Positions 49,236-58,144 of a DNA stretch of 64,000 nucleotides are shown piece after piece. The stretch is from Spongospora subterranea f. sp. subterranea. Lineage: Eukaryota. Below the pieces are notes generated by a model. That model was not told the origin of the DNA and searched no databases. It was given only the letters and a program-made list of their open reading frames with translations. The translations under genes were made by a program, and so were the position numbers. The stretch lies in the NCBI GenBank assembly GCA_049724395.1, contig JAUGWO010000140.1, positions 62,001 to 126,000 on the forward strand, in the 5' to 3' direction. Within the stretch, counting starts at the first letter, position 1, and every line of letters starts with the position of its first letter.

Positions 49236-52215
49236 ATGGGGAATAATCTGTCAGCCGTCCCAGCTCCTCGCTCTAGAAGGTCGTCAAGCATGTCAGAGGA
49301 ACAATCTTCCCCGAAACGACGTGTTGGTAGGACTCTTTTTAGTTCAGTTTGGCGCAACGTTTGTCAGATTCGACGGTTTCAGCATCACGACGAAGAGCGT
49401 CAGATTCTTCTTTGGACGCCTCATTCGATTGTCAAGGTTCTCGACAGAACCGAGGCGGCGGTGATGAGCAACCTATCTCGTCATTACCAATGGGAGGAAT
49501 AACCACTGAAGGTCATCGCCAAAGAAATCTATTTGCATGGTGCTCCTGGTGCTACAAAGAGTGTAATATATCCGGGTTCACTGTCAATACATCGTCGCTA
49601 ACTCTACTCCATTTTATGCAGGCTTGCATGGAAGGACGCAAAAAAATCGTCTAAGAAGATCCCTATACATGTGCCTTAACTGTGTAAGGTAATCCATAGG
49701 CCAAGGGCAATTTTTCGTAATGTTTTGCGGTAATGATAGTGTTCGCAGGAGGACCCTACCTTGCAGGTGGTGCCAACAAGGTATGGCACGTGGACATCGA
49801 GATTACGACGATATGTTATGCGCCAAATGTGATGGTACAATTATTGCATGGGGCTCAGTTCCGTCGACAATTCGTACTGTGGGATGGTGCTCGTGGTGCT
49901 ATGACCTCACCTCTCATGATATTCGCATGACCAACGTTGTCCGACGTAATACCTATATGTGTGAGGCATGTGGTGGTAGGACCGCTCTCTGCATATCTTG
50001 TAAAAAAGCCTTCACGCGATGCAATTCGTTCTACGATGATTACCTATGTGCATTGTGTCAAGGAATGATGACTTCATGGAATGATGTCGACACCAATCGC
50101 AAAAAGAGTCTGGCTGAAGGTCTCACAATTCTTGATCACGACGATCCATATCAGTCTATTTATCCGTTGAGGAGGGGCCAATATGTCAAAGCTCTCGTCG
50201 ATGCCAAATGTTTTTATGAATCTCTCCTGGAAACTTTGAATGCCGCAACAGAATCCGTCTTCATGTCGTTTTGGCATCTGAATCCCAAAATATACCTTCG
50301 GAGAAATCCAGGAACCGAGCCCGATATCTCTGATCGATTTGATTCGGTCCTCAAAGCCAAAGCCAATCAAGGAGTAAAATTCTACATTATCCTTTGGAAA
50401 GAAAATTTGACCGCTGTCGTCAACAATTTTAGTGAAGAAGTGGCTAACGAGTTAGAAGGTTTGCACTCCAATATCTTTGTTGTCCGTCATGGTCCGCCAA
50501 ATCCATTATTGACATATTATTGTCATCATCAGGTATGTTAAATACACATTTTATGTTGATGCCATGATTTCAGCAAATGTGGTTAGAAATTCGTGGTTGT
50601 CGATCAAGATATAGCGTTTGTTGGGGGATTGGATGTATGCTTAGGAAGATATGACGACCCATCTCACGTCTTAAACGACGAGGACTCACAAATTTGGAAA
50701 GGCGTCGATTACTACAATCCCCATTTGGTTAGACCTTCCTCGATCAAAAGTTTCTTCACCGACGTGATCGATCGGCAATCCGTTCCCCGGATGCCTTGGC
50801 ACGATATCGATTTTGAGGTACGATTCCAGCATCGTAGCCCTCACTCGATTGTAGCAAACAATGACGCCGTTCGTTCGATTGTAGCTGCATGGCTCGACGG
50901 CCCGGGACGTTGCCCGAAACTTCGTCGAAAGGTGGAACCATCACATTGGAAGTTCCGGCCACCGAGACCTTATTTTGACTCCACGACCACATGACGAACC
51001 TCCCATTGTAAAAAAGCATATCTCAACTGCAATTCAACAAAGTTTGAACTGCGTTGGTTTAGCAATCTGTAAAATCTGGAACCTGCATTTGTCAAGTTAT
51101 CCGTTCGATGGGACAATGGAGTGGAGCTTCTAGGCTTGATCGATCGATCTGTATGTCTGGCTAATTCTGCCACTGCTTTAGTGATCAACGCTGAAATTGT
51201 GTAGATGGCGCTTATATCCACGCTGTCATGTCAGCTCAAAAATATATTTACCTGGAAAATCAATATCTGAGTTCAAGTGTCGCCGGAGACGGCGTCGAGA
51301 ACATTGTCGCTCAAAGAATCATCGATCGACTGAAGGAGAAGATCTTCAGCCAAAGAGACTTTCAGGGTCATCATCATACTACCCCAACCAGAAGAGACCG
51401 GAGATAGCGCCATGGAGTTGCTACGCTGGCAATATCAAACCATCAACCGAGGCGGAACCTCAATGGTTGAGCAACTCGCGCGTGCGTTTCCCGATGTTGA
51501 TCTCGAGCAATATCTGTCGTTCTTTTTTCTACGGCAACACGGGTTCTTGTGCGGTCGCCCGGTTACAGAAAAAGTCTTCACACATAGCAAAATTTTACTG
51601 GTCGATGATCGCATCGCTCTTGTTTCGTCAGCCAATTTCAACGATCGGAGCCTGCTTGGTGATCGCGATAGTGAGATTGGCGTCACTGTCGAAGATGAAG
51701 ATTCATTGCAGATACCGATGGACGGCGCGTCGTTTTCTGTTGGGCGATTTCCGCATGAGCTGCGTCTGCAACTTTGGGCGGAGCATCTTGGCTTATCTGG
51801 ATCTGATACCGAACGAATCATTGATCCGATATGCGATTCCGTGTATAACGGCATCTGGATGAAAACTGCTCGAGATAATACTCGAATCTTAGAACAAGTG
51901 TTTCCTAGTAAGGCCGTTTTCCGCCACTTCAGCACTCAAATTTACCATTTTTGTGCTTCTAGGTATTCCCCAAAATCATCATACTACAATGAAGGTGAGC
52001 TCACATGCGCTTGTTCAATATCATCGTTTGAACAAGCTCTATACTAGATATTCAAAAAGGAGCATGGGCTAGAAGTTCCAGCAGTAGCCGTCACCGATGG
52101 AAAAGAGCTATCTGGAGTCCATGGGACACTGACAATGCATCCAATAGGGTTCCTGCTCGATGAAGAGATCTCTACGGTTTTATCATTAGTCCTTGGCGAG
52201 AATGTATCGCAGTAG
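49236..52215 (+). CDS. Phospholipase D with N-terminal tandem Cys-rich module and putative N-myristoylation
   Basis: HKD1 HHQ|KFVVVD..AFVGGLD, PRMPWHD, IYLENQY, HKD2 HSKILLVDD..SANFNDRS..DSE; starts MGNNLS. Confidence 0.92.
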
Positions 52216-52507: not shown

Positions 52508-53947
52508 ATGAAACAGCTAATCAGGGTTAAAGGAGATAGTGGCCGACTCCATATTGTGGATTGCGCCAGCCCTGAAACGCTGTGCACAACCTATCGTGAT
52601 CTGCGTAACGTTCTGCAGCAGGAGCAGGGTCTCTCTTCGGATCATGAGTTATGTGATGCCAATGACGCTGTAAAAATGCATTCGAATCCAGAGACACTTT
52701 CTCCTTCCCTAAATACGAGTGCAGGTATACGATCTGGACACGCCATTGCAGTTCTCCAGTCAGGCGGTCGTTTATGTGAAATGGAAGAGTTTTGATGTCG
52801 TTGTTATCGACGAGCCTCATGAACCCCAACATGTTCAGGTGTCATCGTCCTGGACAGTATATCAAGTAAAGCTCTATTTCAAAACTTTCATTGTTGTTTT
52901 CTAATTCAATGCAGGTTAGGAAAGCATATGAGATTGAAATTGGGACACCAATCGATAGGATATCGTTTCAAGGTCTGGAGCTTGTTGACGACGCGACATT
53001 AGCATCGTATAAAATTATTCAAAACTCCACCTTGGTTTCCCGTATTCGCATCTATGTTCATGATAAGTTTTGCCATGTACGTCGGTCTCTCACTTTTCAG
53101 TTGTGTTCAGAATATTGATTACGTTTCTTACTTTACAGATCGAACAACCATTATTGTTATATGAGTTCAGTACGATTGGTGACCTGAAACTGGCGTTTGG
53201 TACATCGACCGCGCGCTCGACCATGTCTGGAAAATGCACATTTCGTGGGAAAGAACTTGATGAGTACAAAACTCTATTCCACGCTGGAATCGCCACTGAT
53301 TCTGTAAATCGCCAATTAATGTGTTCATTGCTGTTTTCCCAACGTTTACCTATGTTCAGCTGGTTGAATTTACGAGTGCTCCGTTCACGATAGATATCGT
53401 TGTGCCTGGTCCGCCTGGGGATGAAGAAGAGGGCGAACGGATTGTTGAGTTGTCAACGTATGATCATCATACCATTCAAATGATTAAAGACAACTTTGGT
53501 TTAGCCACAGGTGGTCAGGTAATCTATTGAATGCGATGTTTTGTTCGCGAAATCACATAATTTTTCTTCCAGGCTCTGGTTCCCGAGGATAAGCTGACCT
53601 TGGATGGAGAAGCGCTAGCTGAGAATGAGATGATTTACCTTCGCGGGATCAAGCATGGAACACAGTTATATCTTCAACGTGAAGATGTTGTCAAGTAAAA
53701 TTACCGACAATCGATTTGTGCTGATATTCACTCGCCGTTTGAGTGTAGATCGATCGCCTATGAATGTGGAAGTTGCGGCGATAACAACAAGATTCGGCGA
53801 AGGGATCCCATTCGCTGTAGGAATTGTGGATATCGAGTACTGTACAAACTGAGGACGACCCGCCGTAAGTGAACACTATCGCCGCATATCTGTTTGTCCC
53901 CATCCAATTTGATATTTACTACAGCTTGTCAATACGTTGCGCGATAA
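52508..53947 (+). CDS. RPB12: Four tandem ubiquitin-like domains fused to RNA polymerase common subunit RPB12 (RPABC4/Rpc10)
   Basis: Ubl ends FQGLELVDDATLASYKIIQNSTL, FRGKELDEYKTLFHAGI, LDGEALAENEMIYLRGIKHGTQLYL; splice VVK|SIAYECGSCGDNNKIRRRDPIRCRNCGYRVLYKLRTTRP|CQYVAR*. Confidence 0.85.
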
Positions 53948-54147
53948 CGGTTTTGTGTCGATAAACGCTATTTTAATACACAATTCGGTTTAATCACGGT
54001 CACAATGGTTTCGTCAATCTCGTTAAGGATACCTTCGTCACCCCTGGATATTTCGTGTCTATCATGACCAGGATATTCTGATCTGCGTGCCTGCCCTGTC
54101 ATCATATCTTGTTAATCGACCTAGGAGATAAACCTGATTACGATTTA

Positions 54148-54701
54148 ATGTCGAACACCATTGACGGGTCCTTGTCACCAAGGTGCGGGAAGAAGGTGGC
54201 AGATTTGAAGCGAGCGAAACCCTTACACGAAGGGACCAAAGTTGTCACTCCTCTTCCATCACCCGAGTGCAAAAAACACCCGATTATCGACGTTCATGAC
54301 GATGAAACAGGGTTTGAGACGTAAGAGAGACTGCAGAAAACGACAAACCTCAAACTGACCGATAATCAACGGCCAGTTACCTGCAGAAATTAGAGTCGAT
54401 ACAATGGGAGAATTCGTCGTCATCAGTTGCGTCGGTGTTAGGTGAGATGATCTCATCTGTCAACAACATATCGACAGAGTTGGACGTTCAGTTCGACGCT
54501 ACGTCTCCTGATAGTGGTCTGCACATGGGATTGCAGCAAGAAATACAATCGGAACTGAACGAGATTAGCGAACTGTTCGCCGATTACGCCGAACGGCATC
54601 CGAGCATATGCCATGACCAAGCTGTTGCAGCGGCGATATTCGAGCAGCTGCAAACACCGGGCGGTAAGAAAACTACGTCGCGACGCATTTCACATTCATA
54701 A
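54148..54701 (+). CDS. Hypothetical protein
   Basis: Two ORFs joined by a plausible intron (~54321); helical acidic C-terminus; no family recognised. Confidence 0.4.
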
Positions 54702-55519
54702 CGAATGTGTTCCTTGCCAAGCTCAGTCGTAATTCTATTATCCAGACTATTTCGCTCATACAGATTACACGCTTTTTAATCAATCGCAACAATAGCTTAT
54801 ATTTTGTCTGGAGATCCTCCCGGCACCAATATGCAGACATTGTTGCCATTTACCAAGCAGGAGTCGATCTGGGTTGCCCTTTTGCCTTCCGGAGTGACCT
54901 CGCTTTGTAGGCATCGTCAGACACATGATAACTAGACTTGAGCGAATATGCTTACTATTCAGTGGCACCGTCTAGAACCATGTTCACATAATCATCGAAC
55001 CCTATCGTGGCCAAACGTTAATCCAGTTCGGCAATGAATATTAAGGAGAAACTATCGTCTACCTCGCAAAGTCCCGACGATTTCTTTTTCCCCTTTCATA
55101 ACAATCCAAATGCTCGACCCAATGCATTTATCAAGAAGTTCTGATATTCAAGTATATCAGTCAGGACAGACTTTTTCAATGTGCCAAAAGAGGGATCCTC
55201 CGCTATGCCAACGCGTACCTAATGGCAGCAATTGGCTTAGGTTGGTCTTGGCCGTCGATGCCGTTTCTGTTGCCATGGTTGATGGACTGGGTCTGCAACG
55301 CCAACGCCACTGTTACCTTAGGTATTGGTCTCCATCACGTGTCCGCGGACTTGCCTTCGTTGGTGTGTATATTCCTGACACCCAAAAGTATGGAAATAAC
55401 GTTCTGGAGTCGATCATGATTTCAGGTTCATTGACGTGTCACGATGCCAAATGCAGCATAGCGCTATGGTACATTGTCCCTGTTCCGTTTCCAAGCCAAA
55501 ATGCCACTGGTTTCTGCAA

Positions 55520-58144
55520 TTATTCATGGCCCAGTTTTATAATAGTTAGCAGCGCCGATGTGGCGTTCGACTTGATTGCATTCCGACATGCTTGGATCAC
55601 AGCTGCCTTGTGAGCACCCGTCCGCAACCTTGCTGCTCGCTGGATCATTAAATTAACCTATTCACGGGAAATTTTATTTTTAATTTCACAAACGTTATTC
55701 TACCAACCTGCTTTAACGCGTCTAAGAGCGCCTCATGATTAGCCTGCCCTTTTGTTCAATTCGCCTATGAGTTCATTGTTTGTATCAAACAATTCTGAAT
55801 ATTGTATCTTCATTTCAGCCATATCTCCCAAGAGCCGCGCATCCTGTAATAATAAGCCGGGACGCTAATGTACAACCTGGCGCAGTACCTCGCCTTTGAC
55901 AACTAGAGTTTTCATAAAATTGCTGAGGTCTACCATTTCGCTGCAGAGCCGTTTTCTAAGATCTGCATATTCGCTCATGTTTTTAAGCACATCTTCAAAG
56001 TCCTTGAACTCCTTTGGGAACGAAGCAACGCTTTCACAGTTGTCTATGGAAAGAAACGTACACAAATCTTGAATAATATCACCTTTGTTCACAGTATATC
56101 AGACCTTGAATGGAATGAAAACCACGTAAAATTACCGGCCAATTGCATGTCGTCAGTGCGAACTTGAAATTGGCTGCTCCCAGTGGTATTTACCGCCATG
56201 TTTAGAAATACGTCATTCCTCATGCATTTAAATCCAATGTTTAGCGTGTCGTTATCATGACGATTAGCCAGGTCCAACAAGAAGCTTTGGCTGAGCCAGA
56301 GGATGACTCTGGATATGCGTTCCTTCAAAGGTAGAGTGACCTGTATCAGAAGTTACTTGCCCTCTTTACGTGCAAAAAAAATGAGCAAAGAACGCACCAC
56401 AGAGCCTATCTGAGGCATGTCCCGTGGCTTGCAGTAAACGAATGACGCAAACTTTGGCAACCGGTGAGAGAGCTCAAACACATGATCTTGTGCAACGCCT
56501 TGCTTGACAAGTAAGTCAGAATTGAGCAAACTCACCGAGATGTCTTACCTTTGTATCCCACCACTACTTTAATCATCAATTGACAAGCTACATGCCGCTG
56601 AAGGCGCAAAGGGACTGCAACGGTTTTATCCGGGTTGTCAGGGAAATATAAAAGGCTACCGCTTTCGAAAACACCGTCAGCAAATATCATGACAACCTAG
56701 AAACCATTTGATCAAACCTTATTCGATGTCCAACTAGTGTCACAAACCTTAATCAATGTATCATTTGAACTTTCCATTCTCAGTTCCAACGCCGTTTTGG
56801 TCAGGTTAGGACCCAAAGCGCATGAAATTTTGGTGTCCACAGGGATGCTTCCTAATTGTATAGACGACTTTTGAATCGCAGCAAGATTAGAGTCATAACC
56901 ATTTAGTTCTCGTTGCAGTTCGGCGATTCTTGATTTCATTTTTGCGATTGCCGCGTCGTCTGATCCTGATCGAATAGCAGGAGTGGCTTCTGAACTTTCC
57001 GTATCTGGACCTTGATAACCTGTTGGTAAAATCTGCATGAAATCATGCAAGCTAAACAGAGGCTCGAAAGCATTACCTTGAATGGCACCGTCAATGGCGC
57101 AGACAATGACCTCCATTGTTCCTTTTTGACGATAATCGCCAATAAGAATAGCAGCGACAGTGGCGCCAATGTTATCGGAGTATAACAGAGTGCCATGCTT
57201 CATCAACCTCGCCTAATAAAAAAATCGGTAAAACAGTCGTGGTTTGACAAGTGAGTACTACTTCAATGGTTCCGTCAGTTAACCCGAGAATAATTTCGGG
57301 AGTCCCATCTCCATCGATATCAAAACTTGCTATGGCCACCGCTGGAACTTGCAATTTCAAACTCCATAATCTCGAGTTGCCCTCATATACGCCAATACTT
57401 CCGTCAGTGAGTGCATATGCGAAGCAATTACCTTGGATCGCAGTCAAGCCTGATGTTATAGTAAATATAATTCTACAGAAAAAATGGGGCATTTACACAA
57501 GATTGCATCACTTTCGCTTGTCTCCCAAATAATTTGCTCCCCCCGGTAGGCACGAATTTGGCAGTCTTCGCTACCAACGATCAATTCTTGCGATCCATCT
57601 GCATCGACATCACACAGCGCCAGTGAGGTCACATTGTCGCCAGTAACTGTCCAAAACTGTTCTTCTCCAGAATAATCAAATCCCTGAACAGAACAATTGC
57701 CACCAACGACGGCCAAAGGTGTCCCATTTTTTGATACGGCTCCAACAGCAATTGCATTGACACCATCAGCGACATCCTTGAACAGTACGTCGGAATTCCG
57801 AACGATGTCGTACCCCGTCAAATTTGTGGGTGTCCCAATGAATAATGTGTCATTTGCTGCAGAGTCTAGCCTGCCGATTGCTAGAGATGTTATATCTCTA
57901 TTTATTCGTATGATCTATAAATCGGCATCTACGATCAAAAGAGGGTAGTCTCCAGTTTTGCACTGATGTTTACCTGAGGTTTGTCAGGGGCATGTGACCA
58001 GTGGATGGATACCGTTCCTCCAGGGTTGGCGGCGGCAATTGCAGCGTTTTCGCCATCCAGAAAGCCGAATACAGCCCGCCTGGGAAGGATAGCTCCATCT
58101 AGCCGTGCCTGAAATGCAGGTGTTAATCGCTGCACGACCGACAT
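55520..58144 (-). CDS. BBS2: Bardet-Biedl syndrome 2 protein (BBSome subunit)
   Basis: GTPTNLTGYD, AVVGGNCSVQGFD..EEQFWTVTGDNV, ELIVGSED, FAYALTDGSIGVY, C-terminal QRAARLRTG..ACRNAIKSN. Confidence 0.95.

Follow-up and report, generated by a model that had tools for sequence, protein, structure and literature searches.

A zinc-ribbon RPB12 joined to four divergent ubiquitin-like domains in Spongospora subterranea and other Rhizaria

The DNA analysed here (the window) is a stretch of 64,000 nucleotides from Spongospora subterranea f. sp. subterranea (contig JAUGWO010000140.1, positions 62,001 to 126,000 of the forward strand), with a GC content of 40-52% and GT-AG introns of 49-62 nt. Its + strand carries a gene, with an ATG at 52508 and a stop codon ending at 53947, in which four ubiquitin-like (Ubl) domains, D1 to D4, precede the zinc ribbon of the RNA polymerase subunit RPB12. 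A phospholipase D gene with PLDc motifs (49693-52215, + strand) lies directly upstream; its N-terminal region contains many CxxC pairs and has no Pfam match. The gene for the BBSome subunit BBS2 (PF14781, E 6.5e-17) is found at about 56700-57914 on the - strand. The features of the fusion gene are listed below, the E values of the family profiles against ubiquitin being those for a two-sequence database.

52508..53947, + strand: whole fusion coding region, 8 exons, 349 aa, four Ubl domains and then RPB12 (all 7 joints found in transcript contigs)
52508-52669, 52725-52865, 52915-53076 and 53139-53303, + strand: exons 1-4
53360-53518, 53573-53694, 53749-53864 and 53925-53947, + strand: exons 5-8
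52508..52784, + strand: D1, aa 1-74, the most divergent Ubl domain (profile against ubiquitin E 1.1e-4; beta-grasp, pLDDT 89-97 in the model of an orthologue)
52785..53043, + strand: D2, aa 75-144 (PF00240 E 1.5e-4 on exon 3; profile E 1.3e-10)
53044..53380, + strand: D3, aa 145-217 (profile E 6.1e-10; VIA-align against a Ubl with 75 residues aligned, Z 13.9 and rmsd 1.5 A)
53381..53680, + strand: D4, aa 218-299 (profile against ubiquitin E 2.9e-8)
53681..53755, + strand: junction, an R-E-D linker that lacks di-glycine and is interrupted by intron 53695-53748; GG in 0/71 aligned rows
53756..53947, + strand: zinc ribbon of RPB12 with the C-terminal tail (aa 307-349), interrupted by intron 53865-53924

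No in-frame ATG is present in the exon that encodes the ribbon (start at 53749), and splicing of a 54-nt GT-AG intron (53695-53748) joins this exon in phase to exon 6. This arrangement had been proposed by a sequence-only reading of the window, and both the gene model and public transcript contigs bear it out. The stretch is represented in 17 public runs, and contigs from 8 of these were examined. All 7 introns are spliced as GT-AG joints, and the joint between the Ubl part and RPB12 (53694-53749), which the same reading had singled out as the one to check (~53693-53748), is present in 7 of the 8 runs (X1, X2, X7, X13, X3, X5 and X15, from studies P1-P5) and absent from X9; X1 and X13 gave identical tables and are probably one data set deposited twice. 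Oligo-dT RNA is on record for X7 and X9 only, the RNA of the other runs being guessed or unlabelled, yet their contigs are spliced. Single contigs span the fusion ORF in X3, X5, X15 and X2: those of X3 (1095 nt, 52512-53996) and X15 (1074 nt, 52542-54002) each cross all eight exons, and that of X5 reaches back beyond the ATG, to 52491. If intron 6 is left unspliced, the reading frame ends at a TAA one codon inside the intron and the product would be a Ubl-only protein of 304 aa; retention of this intron was not found among the contigs of the 8 runs, contigs being a form of data that drops rare forms. An intron is present at the same position between D4 and the ribbon in Plasmodiophora brassicae and in a third plasmodiophorid (P0009, P0096, P0001). 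That two genes had been wrongly predicted as one is ruled out by the spliced contigs, by an intron-free copy on a metagenome contig (L002) and by conservation. Combined, these results show that the fusion gene is real, conserved and transcribed as one spliced message.

The P. brassicae orthologue PBRA_002644 (348 aa) is 58% identical to the S. subterranea fusion over 344 columns. A search for long proteins with the ribbon as query gave two matches among 7 candidates, PBRA_002644 and a read-through fragment that carries an intron at the corresponding junction. When the P. brassicae fusion was used as query with no filter, 948 matches were obtained at E 0.001 and the best 150 of them were examined. 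Sorted by the ribbon motif, these 150 comprise 67 proteins with an upstream part devoid of GG, 7 in which the upstream part is a true ubiquitin with a terminal GG, and 8 short proteins, the remainder being polyubiquitin-like proteins or exon fragments; two members with a variant Cys spacing were added to the family by hand. Twenty entries were looked up, and two clusters among them have organism names: one belongs to foraminifera, Bolivina argentea and Nonionella stella (EukProt), the other to a chlorarachniophyte, Bigelowiella natans (JGI 68195). The fusion is thus common to P. brassicae, B. natans, two foraminifera and more than 60 further relatives, and its presence in related taxa, a check that had been suggested from the sequence, extends to Phytomyxea, Chlorarachnea and Foraminifera, three deep branches of Rhizaria. 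Judged by this distribution the fusion is old, and we infer that it is limited to Rhizaria. Among metagenome contigs 12 of 143 were confirmed, three with all domains and nine with the ribbon only and no Ubl exon in the available flanks; contig L002 carries the complete fusion within a single ORF. None of 93 pattern matches on viral contigs was confirmed.

An alignment of 71 rows was assembled from the window model, the 67 motif-selected proteins and three added sequences, one intron read-through and two near-duplicates being dropped. The order D1-D2-D3-D4-RPB12 is found in 33 of the 36 full-length rows, with profiles built from the same rows; two of the exceptions lack a D2 match and one has an ambiguous fourth domain. 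A full-length tree made by a quick method has 19 of 67 branches starred and a tree of the 43 ribbon columns has 5 of 81, so that neither can settle the origin or monophyly of the family. In the ESM Atlas, no feature match reached 0.9 for P0002 or P0110, and the nearest feature matches of the fusion were Ub-eL40 precursors (score 0.81, under the 0.9 bar); a structural row of 313 aa (TM 0.48), listed with no taxa, may belong to the family. Databases label the P. brassicae protein as a 'ubiquitin-like domain-containing protein' with both Pfam domains annotated. No description of a four-Ubl-RPB12 fusion was found in the full-text literature, a coverage outside which most subscription papers lie, and the supplements of PMC4815078 (minus two picture-only files), PMC8256667 and PMC4471660 gave no match for the family or gene terms; the fusion is apparently undescribed to date.

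The transcripts and the alignment bear together on the idea that an internal start or a separate promoter yields a short RPB12, the fusion being incidental. Exon 6 contains an in-frame ATG (Met283, 53630) from which a 67-aa product could be made, and this Met is found in all three plasmodiophorid sequences. Neither an alternative first exon nor a loose end was seen near the 53694-53749 joint in the contigs of the 8 runs, and the independent RPB12 start or ATG exon within 53600-53748 that the sequence-only reading had named as the contrary case was not seen in them either; contigs cannot show transcript starts. Across the family, however, a Met occupies the Met283 column in only 13 of 71 rows, any Met occurs in the 43 residues before the ribbon in 46 of 71 rows against 41 expected by chance, and the entire ORF is conserved in frame across lineages. 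We consider this explanation very improbable.

By its ribbon the fusion belongs to the RPB12 family. The ribbon exon matches PF03604 with 55.5 bits (E 4.3e-15, cut-off 24), 60 of the 65 members of alignment A1 match the same family at E 0.01 or better, and comparison with solved RPB12 chains of the PDB gives E values of about 1e-12. The four zinc ligands of the CX2C...CX2C motif are kept in 71/71, 71/71, 71/71 and 70/70 rows, rows that were partly selected by this motif. In the C-terminal part, the importance of which is described in PMC2680338, Lys337 is kept in 71 of 71 rows and Arg339 in 69 of 71; 64 of 71 rows end 38-43 residues past the first Cys and 60 terminate in AR or CR. The four-Cys ribbon, the K-x-R motif and the free C-terminal tail are shared with RPB12/RPABC4/POLR2K and archaeal Rpo12 (PF03604). 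Size, in contrast, sets the protein apart from this family, and copy number probably does so too. It is encoded as 349 aa in one spliced ORF, about 300 residues of which are an N-terminal extension, compared to about 45-75 aa for stand-alone RPB12 chains; the 14 solved PF03604-type sequences matched by the full fusion or by the ribbon are all 46-76 aa long.

The upstream part had been described as three clear and one weaker Ubl repeats, and the profiles agree, with E 1.1e-4 for D1 against 1.3e-10, 6.1e-10 and 2.9e-8 for D2 to D4 in the two-sequence database. The D2, D3 and D4 profiles match one another (HHalign 98-99%), and structural alignments place the Ubl domains at ~16-21% identity to ubiquitin. 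The ribbon is the best conserved part, with a mean pairwise identity of 50% vs 19-27% for the Ubl domains. These domains are acidic (D1 is negative in 36/36 rows and D4 in 65/71) and the ribbon is basic. AlphaFold2, run with a 65-row alignment, predicts four beta-grasp domains and a zinc ribbon with strands that continue across the junctions (pLDDT 93.7, pTM 0.80); a single-sequence fold of exon 1, which encodes 54 aa of an incomplete domain, reached a pLDDT of 61.9 and was set aside, and a homodimer prediction scored 0.00, a value that gives no answer either way. The top Foldseek match of the model is linear tetra-ubiquitin (315 columns, E 7.4e-22, TM 0.30), followed by the USP7 Ubl array and ISG15. 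VIA-align superposes model residues 2-301 on tetra-ubiquitin with 281 residues aligned, D1 aligning from residue 2.

That no repeat ends in di-glycine had also been noted, and the whole alignment agrees: GG within six residues of the four junctions occurs in 0/43, 0/57, 0/68 and 0/71 rows. The single GG of the window protein (aa 261-262) sits in a loop inside D4, away from the domain ends. Junction spacings are fixed, at 10 residues in 55/55 rows, 7 in 68/68 and 15-16 in 71/71, the last being the distance from the strand-5 Leu of D4 to the first ribbon Cys. By our own reading in ubiquitin numbering, the tails that connect the Ubl domains have lost 3 to 6 residues relative to polyubiquitin. A deubiquitinase needs an extended RLRGG tail, and the Ubl tails of the fusion offer none. 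As di-glycine is absent from the junctions and the inter-domain tails are shortened, cleavage of the fusion by deubiquitinases is unlikely. The model predicts an acidic and fairly rigid arm, in which the four Ubl domains abut through these shortened tails. Two residues stand out in domains that otherwise evolve fast, Arg181 of D3 (codon 53214-53216; R in 62 of 63 rows) and Asp245 of D4 (codon 53462-53464; D in 69 of 71 rows); they may lock D3 to D4 as a candidate inter-domain salt bridge, or may form a site for a partner. Covariation between the Ile44-equivalent of D4 and ribbon position 317 gave a Fisher p of 0.16, with mutual information dominated by a gappy loop, and was dropped.

The same junctions were used to weigh whether the fusion is a precursor, its arm aiding folding or delivery and then being lost, either to a protease that is not a deubiquitinase or through partial trimming by the proteasome, to give an RPB12 of normal size. 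The linker between D4 and the ribbon does contain a conserved R-E-D (R in 59/71 rows, E in 53/71, D in 40/71) and is about as long as the ubiquitin tail; the part of PMC6133090 that was available describes unusual insertions at rhizarian polyubiquitin junctions, an ancestral rhizarian character; and the seven proteins in which a true ubiquitin ends in GG before RPB12 indicate that a cleavable form exists in some eukaryotes. In contrast, GG is absent at every junction of the four-Ubl family, the six residues after R-E-D are variable, and the fixed four-domain order with its near-invariant Arg181 and Asp245 would be more constraint than a disposable leader seems to need. A processed precursor is therefore, in our estimate, quite unlikely.

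The arm also recalls ubiquitin precursors (Ub-eL40, Ub-eS31, polyubiquitin), in which a ubiquitin fold precedes a subunit of a large machine, the subunit being small, basic and zinc-binding. Unlike these, the domains of the fusion are ~16-21% identical to ubiquitin, differ from one another and lack an RGG tail; on these features it is not a classical ubiquitin precursor. Ubiquitin fusions of B. natans with actin, P1/P2 and NiSOD have been reported (PMC6332867), in a Table 1 that omits the B. natans member JGI 68195. Tandem divergent beta-grasp domains are likewise found in the C-terminal HUBL of USP7, OASL, the SUMO-like domains of Rad60/NIP45, ISG15 and FAT10, all of which are among the structural matches. 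USP7-type tandem arrays serve as docking surfaces, and ISG15 and FAT10 end in GG. These arrays differ from the fusion in partner and in geometry (whole-model TM-scores 0.2-0.3), and none is joined to a polymerase subunit.

The likeness to linear tetra-ubiquitin, the best structural match over four domains (E 7.4e-22), would suit an adaptor for assembly or quality control. The ribbon would then act as a placeholder in an RPB3/RPB2 subassembly and the arm would recruit chaperones, p97 or the proteasome, the protein being absent from the transcribing enzyme; a stand-alone RPB12, as found in P. brassicae, would be available for the mature one. The hydrophobic residue equivalent to ubiquitin Ile44 is kept in D4 in 55 of 71 rows, which favours such a role. 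However, this patch is gone in D2 (0/52 rows hydrophobic, Ser/Thr in 48/52) and mostly gone in D3 (13/64), D1 being unscored; the D4 of the window itself has Thr at this position, the Val70-equivalents of the Ubl domains are mostly polar, and the overall TM-score to tetra-ubiquitin is just 0.30. We regard an adaptor as unlikely.

A second, stand-alone RPB12, another check proposed from the sequence, was found in one species, P. brassicae, as a gene model present in two annotations. This protein of 74 aa (PBTT_06217 = PBRA_007113, CEO99000.1), judged by eye, has CX2C-X13-CX2C, K-x-R and a terminal AR. Both it and the fusion (PBTT_02118) are listed in Table S5 of PMC11191646, the proteome of P. 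brassicae from a telomere-to-telomere assembly, and this table was covered to about PBTT_09363 of 10,521 models. On these gene models the fusion is a paralogue in P. brassicae and not the sole RPB12 copy, unlike the usual single gene. A search for short relatives of the P. brassicae ribbon gave no candidate and is uninformative, its word filter being too strict and missing the stand-alone copy that exists. The stand-alone and fused ribbons match at 25 of 43 positions (by eye) and the two fused orthologues at 39 of 43, so the duplication would predate the split of S. subterranea and P. brassicae; S. subterranea likely has, or had, both genes. Exact motifs in the same part of the table gave one gene each for RPB5, RPB6 and RPB10 and no extra paralogues, and specialisation is thus not backed by a wider set of polymerase-specific paralogues.

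The two P. brassicae copies raise the question of which one is the main subunit. Set against residues 16-51 of human RPB12, the fused ribbon and the stand-alone one each match at 22/36 positions (by eye). A Thr and an aromatic residue that are kept in the fused tail are missing from the stand-alone protein, and on both counts the main copy could be the fusion. In its full form this explanation holds that rhizarian Pol I, II and III all use the uncleaved fusion as their main, shared RPB12, the stand-alone protein of P. brassicae being minor or limited to its lineage. Retention of the fusion across three lineages and a ribbon and tail at least as canonical as those of the stand-alone protein argue for it, and no stand-alone copy has come to light for Bigelowiella or the foraminifera. 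On the other hand, the stand-alone protein is of the usual size, has the four Cys and K-x-R and appears in two annotations, and its existence lowers the likelihood that all three polymerases use the fusion as their sole RPB12. We hold this explanation to be unlikely.

Three outcomes had been offered by the sequence-only reading: a non-cleavable Ubl array tethered to the polymerases, processing by an unusual protease, or a neofunctionalised paralogue. The evidence favours a mixture of the first, from the lack of GG and the fixed short linkers, and the third, from the stand-alone RPB12 of P. brassicae; processing is less favoured. We see an even chance that the fusion is a variant RPB12 through which some of the nuclear RNA polymerases carry a four-Ubl arm, left uncleaved and close to the initiation-factor face. 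In this mechanism, those polymerases would contain the variant instead of the ordinary subunit, and its ribbon would occupy the usual site between RPB3 and the RPB2 wall and protrusion. The arm, whose attachment point lies a few residues ahead of the first strand of the ribbon, would extend outward at the RPB12 corner of the polymerase. For the archaeal enzyme, the part of PMC2680338 that was available states that the RPB12 site is near the position of TFIIB/TBP, and an arm of 300 residues there could thus dock factors or gate their access. Such a docking surface or steric gate might make a single type or state of polymerase distinct from the others. A point against the variant-subunit explanation is that so bulky an arm might clash there with initiation factors.

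The working analogy combines polymerase-specific paralogues of a shared subunit, as with RPB5 in trypanosomes and plants, and an integral Ubl array of the USP7 type. Shared polymerase subunits are mostly encoded by single genes, the exceptions for RPB5 being two forms in Trypanosoma and up to five in Arabidopsis, as given in the part of PMC1540719 that was available. These paralogues are likewise duplicates of a shared subunit; they have no sequence relation to the fusion and no Ubl array. Gdown1/POLR2M, which according to the accessible part of a preprint (bioRxiv 10.64898/2025.12.10.692585) touches RPB2, RPB3, RPB10 and RPB12 and inhibits factor binding, has no sequence relation to the fusion either. 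More tentatively, and with clear reservations, all Rhizaria may have inherited a second RPB12 that places a rigid, non-cleavable four-ubiquitin arm on one polymerase class or state at the initiation-factor face and provides a new marker of Rhizaria.

Few eukaryotic proteins are as uniform as the small subunits that nuclear polymerases share, and the fusion is six times the usual size. The same five-part order in foraminifera, chlorarachniophytes and plant-parasitic phytomyxeans would suggest that Rhizaria, a group whose transcription machinery is hardly studied, control transcription or assemble their polymerases through a layer as yet unknown. If limited to Rhizaria, the fusion would be a rare-genomic-change marker for the group. 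An ordinary RPB12 alongside the fusion weakens the proposal that all rhizarian polymerases carry the arm and raises the question of the role of the second form. The fusion is open to direct testing in B. natans, a cultured alga, and by yeast complementation.

Other forms of RPB12 were seen in the course of the searches. Firstly, in seven proteins among the best 150 of 948 matches (P0101, P0109, P0110, P0111, P0114, P0118 and P0130), one true or near-true ubiquitin ending in GG lies directly on RPB12. Their ribbons cluster with short stand-alone RPB12s (SH-aLRT 95) and not with the four-Ubl family, and they form a separate, probably cleavable fusion. Secondly, P0115 and P0126 are stand-alone RPB12s (53 and 61 aa) with a tail like that of the fused family; they lie on the fused side of a weak tree and could have lost the Ubl arm secondarily. 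Finally, paired RPB12-like ribbon matches on the same strand, separated by a few hundred bases and without Ubl exons, are present on metagenome contigs L006-L009 (about 460-560 and 1000-1145) and L012 (866-1006 and 1252-1317), possibly tandem RPB12 genes of other eukaryotes.

Downstream of the fusion gene (window 53925-54800), the ORFs have no Pfam match. A contig of X1/X13 continues through this segment from the last fusion exons into the next + strand gene, which contains an intron at 54321-54376. In X2, a low-depth joint of 46 nt with CT..AC ends (54095-54140) suggests a spliced transcript from the opposite strand.
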